Source: a virus
Lineage: Duplodnaviria; Heunggongvirae; Uroviricota; Caudoviricetes
IMG/VR virus record: IMGVR_UViG_2690316225_000012
Reading direction: 5' to 3' (one strand)
Length of the DNA stretch: 7,480 nt
In this document: piece by piece, positions 1 to 7,480 of the stretch
Position numbering within the stretch: the first letter of the stretch is position 1
Layout: the number at the start of each line of letters is the position of its first letter
The notes under the pieces: model-generated
What the model was told of the DNA's origin: nothing
Database searches by the model: none
What the model saw: the letters and a program-made list of their open reading frames with translations, nothing else
Program-made: the position numbers and the translations under genes

Positions 1-1
1 G

Positions 2-109
2 AATTACGAGAAGCGCCATACCAAACAGGGGATACAGACCAACCTGACGCTGAAAGAGGAAAGCTACGGCGACTGGCTGCCAAAATGTGACGACCCTGCG
101 ACAGCCTGA
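2..109 (+). CDS. 3' end of an unidentified gene (last 35 codons; start lies outside the window)
   Basis: Frame 2 is open from the window edge to TGA at 107-109 (...NYEKRHTKQGIQTNLTLKEESYGDWLPKCDDPATA*); the other two + frames contain stops. A terminator hairpin follows immediately. Product not recognised. Confidence 0.4.
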   Translation, partial: NYEKRHTKQGIQTNLTLKEESYGDWLPKCDDPATA

Positions 110-115
110 CCCACC

Positions 116-140
116 TGACCGGCATCTGCCGGTCTTTTTT
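116..140 (+). terminator. Rho-independent terminator
   Basis: Stem GACCGGC (116-122), loop ATCT, stem GCCGGTC (127-133), then T7 (134-140), 7 nt after the stop codon of the upstream partial ORF. Confidence 0.7.
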
Positions 141-470
141 TATCCCTGAATTCCCCGAAGGTGAACAATCCACTGTTCACCCTTCACCGTACATTCACCC
201 GTTATCACACTGAAATTTAAAGAGAAAAATGAAAGGTGAACAGTGTGAACAATCAAATCAAAAAAAAACTTTTTTCTCCCTGTGTGATTTCAGTTCGGGG
301 GATTAATCACCGGTATGAGTCACACCGGCAGAATGCCGGAGGTGAAGAATCGAATGTTCACCCTTCACCCATTATTCACCACCTATCACTCTGAAATAAA
401 AGGAGAAAATCAAAGGGTGAACAGTGTGAACAGTTCTTTCGAAAAAAAATTTTTTTCCTGTACGATATAG
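116..470. repeat. Two direct repeat units, about 180-bp period, roughly 80% identical by eye (approx. 116-288 and 325-468), each with internal palindromes and A/T tracts
   Basis: Unit A: GTGAACA(161-167)...TGTTCAC(174-180), TTCACC at 183-188 and 195-200, GGTGAACAGTGTGAACA (235-251), A-tract then T-tract (260-275). Unit B has the same order at +181: CCCTTCACCC (361-370), GGTGAACAGTGTGAACA (416-432), A8T7 (442-456). Each unit is preceded by a CCGGCA-N-TGCCGG hairpin (118-131; 325-339). No ORF in the track covers this region. Confidence 0.7.
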
Positions 471-743
471 CATCAATCCAAGTAAAAATGCGCTTTCATT
501 TCACATTAACTTACAGCCATTGGTATACGATTAGGTATACGCACAAAAACTGAATTAAACAAAATCGTTAAAAATCAAAGCAATATAATATTTATTCAAA
601 CTCCGCCAGCCCCCAATCATGATTGGACGGTGTAAGGACAACACCAACAAAAACAGGAAGTTAGCAGTCTCAGCAGGACACCGACCAGACGGTGAGGAGA
701 CAAAAAAGGATACGCAAAGGAGCCGCGGCTCTCAAGTGTGAAA

Positions 744-769
744 GAAGCCCGCAAATTGCGGGCTTTTTT
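744..769 (+). terminator. Rho-independent terminator
   Basis: GC-rich stem GCCCGC (747-752) / GCGGGC (758-763), extendable by A-T pairs, loop AAATT, followed by T6 (764-769). No ORF upstream, so it may end a non-coding transcript or insulate orf343. Confidence 0.8.
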
Positions 770-824
770 ATTGATCAGTCAACAATAAACAGTAACCGAA
801 TGAGAATTTAATAAGGATATTCAT

Positions 825-1907: not shown

Positions 1908-2252
1908 ATGTCCTTAAAGTATGCACATGAAAAATTTCATACTGCAGTACTTACTCTTGCGGGCCATGGAAGTATTCAAGAACGCTTGATTAATTCGTAT
2001 GTTTTTAGCCTTGGGCATCTTAAAACAGCCGATGATATTCCAAATGCCTTACAAAGCAGGTTCGATGAATTATGTAAGGAACTGACTAAGTTTGATGCCA
2101 CTGGCGATGAGGGGCGAGTTCAAGCAACAGTATCAAAACTTAACGATTTCGAGATCAATAAACTGATCGAAGATATTGTCAGTCTTAACGATGATATTTG
2201 CATGAAATTGGCTCTGACGGATGAGACTTACCAAGACATACACCAAAGTTAA
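1908..2252 (+). CDS. Hypothetical acidic protein, 114 aa; its last 27 codons lie inside the left inverted repeat
   Basis: ATG at 1908 with GGAG at 1897-1900 (7-nt spacing), 51 bp after orf343, same strand and AT-rich composition. Stop at 2250-2252, followed by a hairpin at 2280-2302. Confidence 0.75.
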   Translation: MSLKYAHEKFHTAVLTLAGHGSIQERLINSYVFSLGHLKTADDIPNALQSRFDELCKELTKFDATGDEGRVQATVSKLNDFEINKLIEDIVSLNDDICMKLALTDETYQDIHQS

Positions 2253-2279
2253 TTGATTAAATTCAAAAAGTTAACGTTC

Positions 2280-2302
2280 AACCAGCCAGTTTTTGGCTGG
2301 TT
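2280..2302 (+). terminator. Hairpin terminator downstream of orf114 (convergent with orf70)
   Basis: AACCAGCC (2280-2287), loop AGTTTTT, GGCTGGTT (2295-2302), followed by TATTGTCTT. Sits between the convergent orf114 and orf70. Confidence 0.55.
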
Positions 2303-2336
2303 TATTGTCTTATAATATTCTTGCTCGAATGATGCA

Positions 2337-2549
2337 CTATTTATGATGTAATCCGGACATCAGTTCATGGACAAGATTATCTCTTTCATTGTGTTGCAAC
2401 CGTAAATGCATAGCAAAAAGGTGAGCACTATCCTCATTCCTCTTCAAGCCATGCTGTTCAAGATACCCGAAAAAACGGCTTCTCTTATCCGCTATTTCCT
2501 GAGTCTGACGTGCAACATTTACCAAATTTTCTAGCGTTTTTCTTGGCAT
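2337..2549 (-). CDS. Hypothetical small basic protein, 70 aa, immediately downstream of pin (copy 1)
   Basis: Identical to ORF 6135-6347; the strong AGGAGG ribosome-binding site read from the right copy (6122-6127, 7 nt before the ATG) is present here by symmetry. Product not recognised. Confidence 0.6.
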   Translation of the reverse strand: MPRKTLENLVNVARQTQEIADKRSRFFGYLEQHGLKRNEDSAHLFAMHLRLQHNERDNLVHELMSGLHHK

Positions 2550-2747
2550 ACTATTTCCTCCTGAAATTGTTGTAATTCACTAGGATATTCATTTTAATTT
2601 GTATCATTTAGTACCAAAACCGCTATCAATTAACAAAGCCATCGTTGTGGTTTACCTTGCAGCCGTTTTTTGTCATTGACTCTATGTGAAAATAATGAAT
2701 CATCATGAGATTGGCTCACACGTTCTTGAATTCGACGAGCTGTGTCT

Positions 2748-3302
2748 TTATTTATCTCCTGCCGGAAACCTCTGATACAAAGTCGATACGCCAACATCAT
2801 AGATAATCGCAACTTTCTGGCGCGGAACTCCTGATGCAATTAATCGTCCGGCTTGTGCCCATTGTTCTGGTGTAAGTTTGGGACGACGTCCACCAATTCG
2901 TCCCTGTGCGCGAGCAGCTTCCAGTCCAGCTTTTGTTCGTTCAACAATCAGTTCTCGTTCCATTTCAGCCAGGGCCCCCATCACATGAAAGAAAAAGCGC
3001 CCCATTGGGGTACTGGTATCAATTGAATCCGTCAGACTACGAAAGTTGATGCCTCGTTCGCGCAACTCCTCCACCAGCACGACAAGATGCCGCATACTGC
3101 GCCCCAGTCGGTCCAGTTTCCAGACCACCAGCGTATCGCCTGCCGATAATGTCCTGAGCAGTTTTTTCAGTCCCGGCCTTTCGGACTTTGTACCGCTTAT
3201 CTTGTCTTCAAAAATCAGCTCGCATCCTGCACAGTTCAGCGCATTACGTTGTAGATCTGTGTTCTGGTCATTTGTTGACACACGTACATAGCCAATAAGC
3301 AT
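2748..3302 (-). CDS. pin: Serine DNA invertase, Hin/Gin/Cin/Pin family (copy 1), 184 aa
   Basis: Translation MLIGYVRVSTNDQ... has the N-terminal catalytic Ser10 motif of small serine recombinases and a C-terminal helix-turn-helix region (GVPRQKVAIIYDVGVSTLYQRF). Preferred start is the internal ATG at 3300-3302, which has a GGAG site 7 nt upstream, not the ORF-track start at 3338. I recognise it as e14 Pin-like. Confidence 0.9.
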   Translation of the reverse strand: MLIGYVRVSTNDQNTDLQRNALNCAGCELIFEDKISGTKSERPGLKKLLRTLSAGDTLVVWKLDRLGRSMRHLVVLVEELRERGINFRSLTDSIDTSTPMGRFFFHVMGALAEMERELIVERTKAGLEAARAQGRIGGRRPKLTPEQWAQAGRLIASGVPRQKVAIIYDVGVSTLYQRFPAGDK

Positions 3303-3356
3303 GGTAGATCTCCCTGACAAAAGCAGGAATGATGCCATTTGCTCGTTATTTCTGCA

Positions 3357-3382
3357 TTTTCATAAACGTTGGTTTGGGAGAA
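3357..3382. other. 26-bp invertase crossover site 1 (pix/gix/hix-like)
   Basis: TTTTCATAAACG-TT-GGTTTGGGAGAA: two imperfectly palindromic 12-bp half-sites around a 2-bp AA/TT core, matching the architecture of hixL/gixL/cix sites. Located between pin and variable cassette A, in frame for GLGE. Confidence 0.75.
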
Positions 3383-3383
3383 G

Positions 3384-4269: not shown

Positions 4270-4846
4270 CATCCGGCGCGGTGCTGGTATCTGTTGCAGT
4301 CACCGCGTCAATGTAATCCAGCACAGCGTTAAGCCGGGTTGTTTCTGCCTGCGTCAGCTTCCGCCCGGCCTGCAATTTCAGCTGAATCAGACTAATGGAA
4401 GCCATAGCAGCATCAATCAGTGACTGGCGCCGTACTTCTGCCGCGTCTACTGCGGCGTTATGCTGTGCCTCAGTATCGGTCACCCATTTCTCACCATCCC
4501 ATTTATCGTATGACGTTAACGGGGCGATAGTGGTTGTATTTTCAGGGTAATCACCCGGAACTGTGATTTCTTTTGATTCTCCTGTTTCGGTGCTATAGAC
4601 GATTTCACCGCGATGGTCTGGCACATATTCCCATGAGTTAAAATCTGCAGAACGGCAAATTGCATAACCAGCTTTATATGAGCCAGGAGCATCTAAACAG
4701 GAACATGCCGGGATACCAACACCCACAGCAAGATATTCAGTTGATGTGGAAATATATTCCCGTGTTTCACCATCATAATTATAAACGGTAATGTCTCCGG
4801 CCTTTGTGGCGATGAGTTCATTATTTAATACAGCTTTACTTATCAT
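4241..4846 (-). CDS. Tail fibre assembly protein (Tfa), paired with cassette B
   Basis: 201 aa ending ...LDYIDAVTATDTSTAPDVIWPELPEA (Tfa C-terminal motif). Start overlaps the cassette B stop as ATGA (4843-4846); its 3' end overlaps the other tfa by 29 bp. Confidence 0.85.
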   Translation of the reverse strand: MISKAVLNNELIATKAGDITVYNYDGETREYISTSTEYLAVGVGIPACSCLDAPGSYKAGYAICRSADFNSWEYVPDHRGEIVYSTETGESKEITVPGDYPENTTTIAPLTSYDKWDGEKWVTDTEAQHNAAVDAAEVRRQSLIDAAMASISLIQLKLQAGRKLTQAETTRLNAVLDYIDAVTATDTSTAPDVIWPELPEA

Positions 4847-5300
4847 GCAGCCCTCACAATATAATTAAAGGCGATGTTACGGGAGCGGGTTTCAGATGCT
4901 GTGCGAACTGAGCGAGATGCGTCGAATGTCCAGTTATAAGCGCCATAACCCTCAATAATTTCGGCTTCCTTTAGACCTGTAGATAATACTTGCCCATGTT
5001 GACTAAATGGCCCTGAACTAAGTACGTCTCTAAAAAGCTGGGTACGCCCAAAAGAACCAACAATATTCTGAATTGCATCATTCTGTGCAGATAATAAGTT
5101 ACGACCAGAGTCAATCCCGCGCCCATCATCCCAGCCACGAATAAATTCACCGCGTAAATCTGGTAATTTTAATGTTGGGTAAGCCTTTGCCAGATTTGGG
5201 TACTTTTCAGAAGAAAATACTGCTCCGTTACATTTTAGCCACCCCGTTGGCGGAGTGGCGGAAGGCCACGGAACAGGCACACCAACGGGTAATGCCGAAC
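4843..5300 (-). CDS. Side tail-fibre C-terminal variable cassette B (no start codon of its own; in frame with the GLGE codons of site 2)
   Basis: ORF track 4843-5355. After GLGE: GSALPVGVPVPWPSATPPTGWLKCNGAVFSSEKYPNLAKAYPTLKLPDLRGEFIRGWDDGRG...RNIAFNYIVRAA, which I recognise as a Mu S / e14 StfE-type fibre C-terminus. Confidence 0.8.
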
Positions 5301-5301
5301 C

Positions 5302-5327
5302 TTCTCCCAAACCAACGTTTATGAAAA
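5302..5327. other. 26-bp invertase crossover site 2 (inverted copy of site 1)
   Basis: TTCTCCCAAACC-AA-CGTTTATGAAAA; exact reverse complement of site 1; encodes FINVGLGE on the minus strand at the start of cassette B. Confidence 0.75.
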
Positions 5328-5381
5328 TGCAGAAATAACGAGCAAATGGCATCATTCCTGCTTTTGTCAGGGAGATCTACC

Positions 5382-5936
5382 ATGCTTATTGGCTATGTAC
5401 GTGTGTCAACAAATGACCAGAACACAGATCTACAACGTAATGCGCTGAACTGTGCAGGATGCGAGCTGATTTTTGAAGACAAGATAAGCGGTACAAAGTC
5501 CGAAAGGCCGGGACTGAAAAAACTGCTCAGGACATTATCGGCAGGCGATACGCTGGTGGTCTGGAAACTGGACCGACTGGGGCGCAGTATGCGGCATCTT
5601 GTCGTGCTGGTGGAGGAGTTGCGCGAACGAGGCATCAACTTTCGTAGTCTGACGGATTCAATTGATACCAGTACCCCAATGGGGCGCTTTTTCTTTCATG
5701 TGATGGGGGCCCTGGCTGAAATGGAACGAGAACTGATTGTTGAACGAACAAAAGCTGGACTGGAAGCTGCTCGCGCACAGGGACGAATTGGTGGACGTCG
5801 TCCCAAACTTACACCAGAACAATGGGCACAAGCCGGACGATTAATTGCATCAGGAGTTCCGCGCCAGAAAGTTGCGATTATCTATGATGTTGGCGTATCG
5901 ACTTTGTATCAGAGGTTTCCGGCAGGAGATAAATAA
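5382..5936 (+). CDS. pin: Serine DNA invertase, Hin/Gin/Cin/Pin family (copy 2), 184 aa
   Basis: Identical translation to copy 1; GGAG at 5371-5374, ATG at 5382. The ORF-track start at 5346 adds 12 codons with no ribosome-binding site and is not preferred. Confidence 0.9.
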   Translation: MLIGYVRVSTNDQNTDLQRNALNCAGCELIFEDKISGTKSERPGLKKLLRTLSAGDTLVVWKLDRLGRSMRHLVVLVEELRERGINFRSLTDSIDTSTPMGRFFFHVMGALAEMERELIVERTKAGLEAARAQGRIGGRRPKLTPEQWAQAGRLIASGVPRQKVAIIYDVGVSTLYQRFPAGDK

Positions 5937-6134
5937 AGACACAGCTCGTCGAATTCAAGAACGTGTGAGCCAATCTCATGATGATTCATTATTTTCACAT
6001 AGAGTCAATGACAAAAAACGGCTGCAAGGTAAACCACAACGATGGCTTTGTTAATTGATAGCGGTTTTGGTACTAAATGATACAAATTAAAATGAATATC
6101 CTAGTGAATTACAACAATTTCAGGAGGAAATAGT

Positions 6135-6347
6135 ATGCCAAGAAAAACGCTAGAAAATTTGGTAAATGTTGCACGTCAGACTCAGGAAATAGCGGATAAG
6201 AGAAGCCGTTTTTTCGGGTATCTTGAACAGCATGGCTTGAAGAGGAATGAGGATAGTGCTCACCTTTTTGCTATGCATTTACGGTTGCAACACAATGAAA
6301 GAGATAATCTTGTCCATGAACTGATGTCCGGATTACATCATAAATAG
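6135..6347 (+). CDS. Hypothetical small basic protein, 70 aa, downstream of pin (copy 2)
   Basis: AGGAGG at 6122-6127, ATG at 6135; identical to 2337-2549 (-). Confidence 0.6.
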   Translation: MPRKTLENLVNVARQTQEIADKRSRFFGYLEQHGLKRNEDSAHLFAMHLRLQHNERDNLVHELMSGLHHK

Positions 6348-6381
6348 TGCATCATTCGAGCAAGAATATTATAAGACAATA

Positions 6382-6404
6382 AACCAGCCAAAAACTGGCT
6401 GGTT
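6382..6404 (-). terminator. Hairpin terminator (inverted-repeat copy of 2280-2302), here oriented to end the truncated fibre transcript
   Basis: Reverse complement of the 2280-2302 hairpin; on the minus strand the stem is followed by TATTGTCTT. Confidence 0.5.
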
Positions 6405-6431
6405 GAACGTTAACTTTTTGAATTTAATCAA

Positions 6432-6818
6432 TTAACTTTGGTGTATGTCTTGGTAAGTCTCATCCGTCAGAGCCAATTTCATGCAAATATCATCGTTAAG
6501 ACTGACAATATCTACTTCTCCCAAACCAAGGTTTTCGAGAGCCGTTTTCACCGTGCCATCAGATTTGATATCGCCAAACGGATTCTTGCGGCTTAACAGC
6601 AGCGCACGAAGCGCGGTAAGCAGCTGGTCATGCCGCCCCTTCTCCAGGCTGGCACCGGATGCCTCCACCACGCTGCAGAGTTCTTCCTGCAACATGTCAA
6701 AGTAGTCATCATCCAGATCGGTGGCAGGTGTGCCGGTCTGGGGGTTACCACGGGTAAAACCGTTCTTACCCGCGCCGAACTTATCCTTCTGCGCGGTTTT
6801 CGTGTCTATACGATGCAT
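6432..6818 (-). CDS. Side tail-fibre N-terminal constant domain, fused in this arrangement to a 27-aa tail copied from orf114 (truncated fibre)
   Basis: ATG at 6816-6818 with GGAG 7 nt upstream, 3 nt after the YmfQ-like stop. [21 protein letters not shown]...[10 protein letters not shown] looks like a fibre N-terminal domain and ends in the GLGE crossover-site codons. The ORF then runs into the inverted repeat and ends [27 protein letters not shown], identical to the orf114 C-terminus. Confidence 0.7.
6516..6541. other. 26-bp invertase crossover site 3, inside the fibre constant-domain gene
   Basis: TTCTCCCAAACC-AA-GGTTTTCGAGAG: the left half-site is identical to that of site 2, the right half-site is fibre-specific; encodes LENLGLGE in the fibre frame; 2 nt from the inverted-repeat boundary. 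Confidence 0.7.
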
Positions 6819-6821
6819 GGA

Positions 6822-7479
<658 letters not shown>

Positions 7480-7480
7480 C

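Follow-up and report, generated by a model that had tools for sequence, protein, structure and literature searches.

Near the start of the 7480-nt stretch of DNA analysed here, which we refer to as the window, a dense and ordered array of short repeats is present, and the question is what this array does. The initial annotation listed three options without choosing between them: integrase arm-type and IHF sites at a prophage attachment site, replication-origin iterons, or an operator array for the downstream cargo. Our analyses establish the identity of the array with the crr of phage P4, the content and arrangement of its iterons, its linkage to the alpha gene and the selective conservation of the iterons. 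Positions 155-455 are almost certainly the crr, the cis replication region, of a P4-like satellite prophage located at ssrA, just 3' of the alpha gene and its terminator, and evidence contradicting this assignment was not met in this analysis. The crr was sequenced and named in the 1980s and has its place in the annotated GenBank records of P4; the repeat array is not a new element.

Identity and organization of the repeat array

A blastn search with window positions 1-820 against phage records revealed that positions 1-455 correspond to positions 4291-4744 of the phage P4 sequence X51522, with 95.6% identity (E=0). The same match was obtained for records NC_001609 and X05623. On the aligned bases, X51522 has annotations for the alpha gene end (AA 1-777), talpha, two copies of a "crr 120bp direct repeat" and ten copies of an "ori type 1 repeat" (TGTTCACC), five of which are present in each of the two direct repeats. 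All ten annotated iteron positions are occupied in the window, with matching orientations, and nine of the ten iterons are unchanged. Pairwise alignment showed that the third one differs at its first base (window position 192), being CATTCACC in the window and TATTCACC in P4. All other differences between the window and P4 lie between the iterons, and the similarity stops abruptly at window position 455. Moreover, every "ori type 1 repeat" annotated in P4 coincides with a motif that had been listed for the array beforehand. Hence, among the three options, that of replication-origin iterons holds, and those of an att array and an operator do not (see below).

The array also resembles P4 crr (X51522 4291-4590; X05623) in its position after alpha and talpha, and in the presence of two 120-bp repeats that are about 60 bp apart. 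It differs from P4 crr by one extra A in the first A-tract, by a spacer hairpin that is longer by 1 bp, and by a flanking att arm that is wholly different. The att arm is unlike that of P4 because the satellite in the window uses ssrA and not the P4 site. An Rfam scan of the whole window (E<=0.1) gave no match in positions 1-900; therefore, the element is not a known RNA. The ssrA-like core of att did not score either, being too short or too degenerate.

The order of features is the alpha 3' end, talpha and then crr, starting at position 155 (Table 1). The open reading frame at positions 2-109, which had been considered as the possible 3' end of a host gene, is in fact the end of alpha, a gene of the satellite itself, and comprises its last 35 codons. 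Its translation, NYEKRHTKQGIQTNLTLKEESYGDWLPKCDDPATA, agrees with the C-terminus of the alpha homologue; it is in frame, and it differs from P4 alpha at the last residue only. A composite query, consisting of the 35 residues encoded by the window and 76 upstream residues taken from the satellite of Escherichia coli GN03551 (locus L003), matches PDB entry 1ka8 over its full chain (E=2e-66); this chain has 100 residues, of which the window itself encodes the last 28. In PMC2777425, alpha is described as carrying a C-terminal winged-helix DNA-binding domain, and 1ka8 is cited for the winged-helix domain with which P4 alpha binds the origin.

Two hairpins are present in the region. The talpha hairpin (117-134) is followed by a T7 stretch and folds at -14.1 kcal/mol (z=-5.2); among 16 relatives its stem is conserved and its loop is variable. 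The second hairpin, CCGGCA-GAA-TGCCGG (325-339), folds at -14.5 kcal/mol and is without a T tail. The 14 nt bearing it are missing from most non-E. coli loci, and this hairpin is a lineage-specific feature of the spacer. The hairpins had been described as parts of the repeat units. Both exist and fold as proposed, but they are 206 nt apart, out of register with the 181-nt repeat, and are thus not unit parts.

A repeat search identified two direct repeats (family D1) at positions 155-276 and 336-457, each of 122 nt, which are 79% identical and have a start-to-start distance of 181 nt. This agrees well with the initial annotation, in which two roughly 80%-identical units with a period of about 180 bp and the same order of motifs were reported. 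Each 120-bp unit contains five or six type I iterons, either TGTTCACC or a close variant of it, arranged as an inverted iteron pair, two direct copies, about 35 A/T-rich bp, a tandem pair on the opposite strand and an A-tract/T-tract junction. In unit A, the two iterons of the inverted pair, GGTGAACA and TGTTCACC, are separated by N6.

The reported packing of GTGAACA/TGTTCAC motifs was borne out by a motif search across the entire window: all seven exact 7-mers fall within positions 160-432. When one mismatch to TGTTCACC is allowed, 9 of the 15 matches in the window are located inside this same 273-nt stretch, where about 0.25 matches are expected; the mean after shuffling is 6.9 per whole window. 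The nine matches consist of five exact copies and four with one mismatch, and the annotated position 192-199 (CATTCACC) has two mismatches. Some details of the initial annotation required adjustment. The A8T7 tract is present at the second A-tract/T-tract junction, but the first junction reads A9-C-T6. Likewise, the inverted repeat ACTGAAAT / ATTTCAGT exists, but its arms are at 209-216 and 287-294, 2 nt away from where they had been placed.

Table 1. Positions in the window of the features of the alpha end, the crr and the attachment site.
Feature	Position	Strand	Basis
3' end of alpha (primase-helicase-origin binding), last 35 codons + TGA	2-109	+	aligned to the end of the P4 alpha CDS
talpha, rho-independent terminator of alpha, GACCGGC-ATCT-GCCGGTC + T7	117-141	+	X51522 "talpha put. 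rho-independent terminator"; terminator scan
crr 120-bp direct repeat A	155-274	.	aligned P4 annotation "crr 120bp direct repeat", L001 1655-1774; family D1
type I iteron GGTGAACA (= TGTTCACC on the - strand)	160-167	-	exact match; "ori type 1 repeat" in P4
type I iteron TGTTCACC	174-181	+	exact match; annotated in P4
iteron-like CCTTCACC	181-188	+	without P4 annotation, yet highly conserved
type I iteron variant CATTCACC (P4: TATTCACC)	192-199	+	P4 "ori type 1 repeat" at the aligned position
two adjacent type I iterons, GGTGAACA (235-242) and TGTGAACA (244-251); whole block GGTGAACAGTGTGAACA	235-251	-	match and P4 annotation
A9-C-T6 tract, end of unit A	260-275	.	sequence reading
non-conserved spacer between the repeats, about 60 bp	276-335	.	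unalignable among relatives; contains hairpin 325-339
crr 120-bp direct repeat B	336-455	.	aligned P4 annotation, L001 1835-1954
unit B iteron GGTGAAGA	341-348	-	motif match
unit B iteron TGTTCACC	355-362	+	motif match
unit B iteron CCTTCACC	362-369	+	motif match
unit B iteron TATTCACC	373-380	+	motif match
unit B iterons in block GGTGAACAGTGTGAACA (416-432)	416-423, 425-432	-	motif matches
A8T7 tract, unit B end	442-456	.	
candidate integrase arm-type sites TTGGTATACG-A-TTAGGTATACG	520-541	+	repeat distribution in L003
attR core, degenerate copy of the ssrA (tmRNA) 3' end, TTCAAACTCCGCCAGCCCCCAA	595-616	+	alignment with ssrA of two E. coli strains and attR of GN03551

Two mechanical open reading frames, 236-394 and 315-470, are present in the region that had been called ORF-free. 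Neither of them is conserved, so that the description holds in substance. In the RefSeq record of P4 (NC_001609; L085 614-949, corresponding to the region of window positions 315-470), a GeneMark "hypothetical protein", P4p05, is annotated over crr unit B through attP. The C-terminal two-thirds of P4p05 are lost in the window, where the homology ends at position 455, and the frame is cut short likewise at other att sites. P4p05 is probably not a real gene, and we rejected it as such.

Conservation of crr units at alpha loci

We used the C-terminal 270 aa of alpha as a query in a survey of one genome per species, which yielded 80 alpha loci (L004-L083). Nearly all of these belong to genera of the Enterobacterales, and a few records have MAG or other labels. 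The loci were then screened for crr units with a profile built from the two units of the window itself. A crr unit was found at 57 of the 80 loci, mostly starting about 50 nt past the alpha stop codon. Fourteen loci, in addition to the window, P4 and GN03551, contain two units, with periods of 166-181 nt, and unit B shows visible decay in two of them, L009 and L010. Most of the other surveyed satellites have a single unit whose internal architecture is unchanged, and the two-unit form is therefore the minority form. At about 23 of the 80 loci the profile search did not detect a unit; some of these absences are explained by a frameshifted alpha gene, and some may reflect true loss.

Conservation within the unit is concentrated on the iterons. 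For 72 distinct units from Enterobacterales, the mean frequency of the top base was 0.84 in iteron columns versus 0.57 in columns outside iterons and tracts (Mann-Whitney p=3e-7), a contrast that is somewhat inflated by the seeding of the profile with the window units, which favours alignment on conserved iterons. The 72 units likewise retain the tandem GTGAACAGTGTGAAC block and the A-tract/T-tract junction. The block at positions 235-251 is the best-conserved part of the unit, and an A7-8/T5-7 junction is kept in the units of nearly all relatives. The CTTCACC of the iteron-like CCTTCACC (181-188) is nearly invariant, both in a 16-locus alignment and in the 72-unit alignment. Together, the aligned units indicate that the crr iterons are under selective constraint.

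Exact copies of TGTTCACC fade out at the alpha loci of Pantoea, Pectobacterium and Serratia. The profile search showed that the unit itself persists in these distant genera with variant half-sites such as GTGAAGA, GTGTAGA and CATCACC. The variant half-sites in Pantoea and Pectobacterium suggest co-evolution with the winged helix of alpha.

With respect to the loci that contain two units, similarity across genera is 0.84 between A units and 0.85 between B units, versus 0.73 between the A and B units within a locus. As orthologous units are closer to each other than the pair within a locus, the duplication is old and both copies have been maintained. In addition, unit B consistently bears the variant half-site GTGAAGA. 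These similarities, the variant half-site and the prevalence of the single-unit form speak for a reading in which the two units are old paralogues that have become functionally differentiated, and are not redundant copies, but this reading seems unlikely to us. If they were differentiated, the duplication might serve to tune copy number or the loading of alpha, or the two units might serve the ori1 and ori2 replicons separately. To our knowledge, a comparative examination of the differentiation of crr units has not been reported.

At the level of a single species, crr-like DNA is present in 1075 of the 5426 complete E. coli genomes, at one to four places per genome (median 1), all of them chromosomal and never on plasmids. 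These low copy numbers are not those of a dispersed host repeat of the REP/ERIC type, a possibility that the initial annotation had raised. In the three loci inspected (P4, GN03551 and strain H15), crr adjoins alpha in every case. Thus, about 20% of the complete E. coli genomes carry crr, yet the RefSeq annotation of the chromosome is blank there.

A proposed role of the array in replication

For P4, alpha reportedly binds the type I iterons of both ori1 and crr, and can loop out the intervening DNA. The crr is said to be required in cis by both the oriI and the oriII replicons, in either orientation. Replication of P4 reportedly starts at ori1, proceeds bidirectionally and does so without DnaA or DnaG, and Cnr is said to modulate the affinity of alpha for the type I iteron sites. 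P4 replication has been treated by Flensburg and Calendar (1987, J Mol Biol), Ziegelin et al. (1993, EMBO J; 1995, J Bacteriol), Terzano et al. (1994, J Bacteriol), Tocchetti et al. (1999, J Virol) and Yeo et al. (2002, Mol Microbiol).

Alpha, without which P4 does not replicate, combines primase with helicase activity (PMC8628076), and the crr, the "cis required region for replication", is described as essential (bioRxiv 10.64898/2026.03.30.715334). In the 28.8-kb locus L003 of GN03551, exact copies of TGTTCACC are distributed as six in the ori1 region between sid and a regulator gene, five in crr and two elsewhere, a distribution that mirrors the annotated P4 ori. In the mechanism that we propose from the P4 literature, the C-terminal winged-helix domain of alpha would bind the crr iterons as well as the six ori1 iterons, located about 4.7 kb away; for the prophage analysed here, ori1 would be expected about 4.7 kb upstream of where the window starts. 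Alpha present at both ori1 and crr would bring these sites together, and initiation at ori1 as well as at ori2, the internal origin, would depend on crr in cis; in other words, crr would constitute the second half of a bipartite origin. The conserved AnTn junction may be an intrinsically bent or easily deformed segment that aids formation of the complex. By analogy with P4, we infer that such binding, looping and requirement for replication would also apply to the prophage in the window.

A known system with a shared motif is P4 ori1 (X51522 ~9310-9413), which consists of six type I iterons and an AT-rich region and has the 8-bp iteron TGTTCACC in common with crr. P4 ori1 is bound by the same alpha as crr, and replication begins at ori1, not at crr. 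The ori1 iterons are mostly in one orientation, with a spacing of about 10-11 bp, within about 100 bp. In contrast, crr consists of two copies of a 120-bp unit, each combining an inverted pair with direct copies and with a tandem pair in the opposite orientation. A further likeness exists with the iteron arrays and auxiliary origins of theta plasmids (R6K gamma ori with the distant alpha/beta ori; P1/F incA/incC), which also are clusters of short repeats for the element's own initiator, with a cluster that is distant from the start of replication and with initiator-mediated pairing or looping between clusters. However, these plasmid systems use initiators of the Rep/pi type, whereas the P4-type initiator is a primase-helicase with a C-terminal winged helix. 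Moreover, P4-type crr is positively required in cis and is not primarily a brake on copy number, and a sequence relationship between crr and theta plasmid iterons is absent.

The value of these data as a discovery is small, and the survey adds a modest comparative picture. In practical terms, crr, talpha and the adjacent attR mark the exact right end of P4-like satellites, and, once crr is recognized, the replication module can be told apart from that of att and from islands nearby. The single-unit form, the A/B paralogy and the conservation of the AnTn junction could guide the design of minimal replicons for P4-based delivery vectors.

The satellite end, alternative readings and downstream DNA

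The element in E. coli GN03551 is 97% identical to the window over positions 1-775. This P4-like satellite spans about 10.7 kb, has the tmRNA gene as its integration site and is arranged as ssrA - int - one cargo gene - psu - delta - sid - regulators - alpha - crr - attR - ypjA. In the window, the match to the satellite-free ssrA locus of strain 602687 begins at position 595, the first base of the attR core. A different repeat, GGTATACG, is present at positions 522-529 and 534-541. In the 28.8 kb of L003, GGTATACG occurs solely in attL (4126, 4138, 4166-) and attR (14521, 14533); therefore, judged by this confinement to the two att arms, it is likely an arm-type integrase site. The genuine attR apparatus hence adjoins crr, about 140 bp further on, rather than being located inside it.

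In strain H15, an alpha-crr module that is 99.3% identical to window positions 1-460 belongs to a satellite at tRNA-Sec with a different integrase, and the homology ends at position 460. The same alpha-crr replication module is thus joined to three integration modules: those of P4 attP, ssrA and tRNA-Sec. A sharp module boundary is seen right after the T-tract of unit B, at 455-460 in the window, at 12311 in L086 and at 1954 in L001.

These data bear directly on whether the array could be a prophage att arm. On that reading, the integrase would bind the short repeats as arm-type sites, and the A/T tracts would serve integration and excision as bending sites or as sites for IHF. The array is indeed only about 140 bp from the attR core and at the very end of the integrated satellite, as would fit such a role. 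However, essentially the same sequence (95-99% identity) adjoins three att sites that have different integrases, with the homology breaking at 455-460 each time, and the presence of the same crr beside three unrelated att sites excludes an att-arm function. Moreover, the annotated attP arm repeats of P4 are outside crr, the crr motif equals the ori1 iteron, and both att arms of L003 are marked by GGTATACG, with TGTTCACC being absent from the attL arm. We therefore consider an att arm to be highly improbable. The chance that orf343, orf114 and orf70 are controlled from the array as an operator or a regulatory region is smaller still and practically negligible. Its dense palindromic and direct sites lie upstream of these + strand ORFs, but the attR core and native ssrA-downstream DNA (618-775), with a terminator at 741-769, intervene before the ORFs are reached, and the cargo lies beyond attR and is part of a different element. 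The downstream genes are present without crr in strain 602687, elsewhere crr is followed by other genes, ypjA and setC among them, and a promoter scan of positions 1-900 found no promoter-like site on the + strand.

A reading that accepts the descent of the array from crr is that it is an inert relic, as the satellite may be defective, for instance through mutation of alpha or ori1. Many P4-like prophages are degraded; some of the surveyed alpha genes are frameshifted or lack crr, unit B is decayed in L009 and L010, and the window starts inside alpha, of which it holds only the last 109 nt. On the other hand, nine of the ten P4 iterons are unchanged in the window and the tenth is off by a single base (position 192), the 3' end of alpha is in frame and P4-like save for its last residue, and the identity is 95.6% to P4 and 99.3% to the H15 satellite. 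Given this degree of preservation, we regard a relic as improbable, though less so than an att arm or an operator. The array is thus best read as the crr of a P4-like satellite, as stated above.

Window positions 618-775 correspond to the native DNA downstream of ssrA. These ~160 bp are non-coding, have 84-88% identity with phages LLS, Ayreon and phiNP, and end with a strong terminator (741-769; -19.3 kcal/mol); an Rfam match for 618-775 was not found. This stretch may be an ssrA trailer carried by phages, or else a small RNA. The features of phage LLS over this match are attP and a "tmRNA pseudogene". We rejected the latter (LLS annotation, window 599-772), as only positions 595-616 resemble the 3' end of ssrA, the remainder being native ssrA-downstream DNA.

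From about position 825 on, the DNA belongs to another element, the remnant of a prophage that has a Pin invertase. Just past ssrA, it contains the + strand ORFs 825-1856 (343 aa) and 1908-2252 (114 aa), which are annotated as "hypothetical protein" in E. coli 602687 and for which no Pfam match was found. Further downstream, a perfect (100%) inverted repeat of 1213 bp is present at 2171-3383 and 5301-6513. In each arm, the 3' end of orf114 is present together with orf70 and a gene for a serine invertase of the Pin type (Resolvase + HTH_7). Between the arms is a 1917-bp invertible segment with tail-fibre and tail-fibre-assembly genes. The second arm splits the tail-fibre gene into 4843-5300 and 6514-6818. 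Strain 602687 has a single copy of pin, and the 6513/6514 junction is spanned in none of the 5426 complete E. coli genomes. Either a rare rearrangement associated with the invertase or an artefact of the assembly accounts for the inverted duplication. Finally, positions 7450-7480 show a weak match, clipped by the end of the window, to the model of the Hfq-binding sRNA isrC (25.6 bits versus a gathering score of 39; E=0.043).
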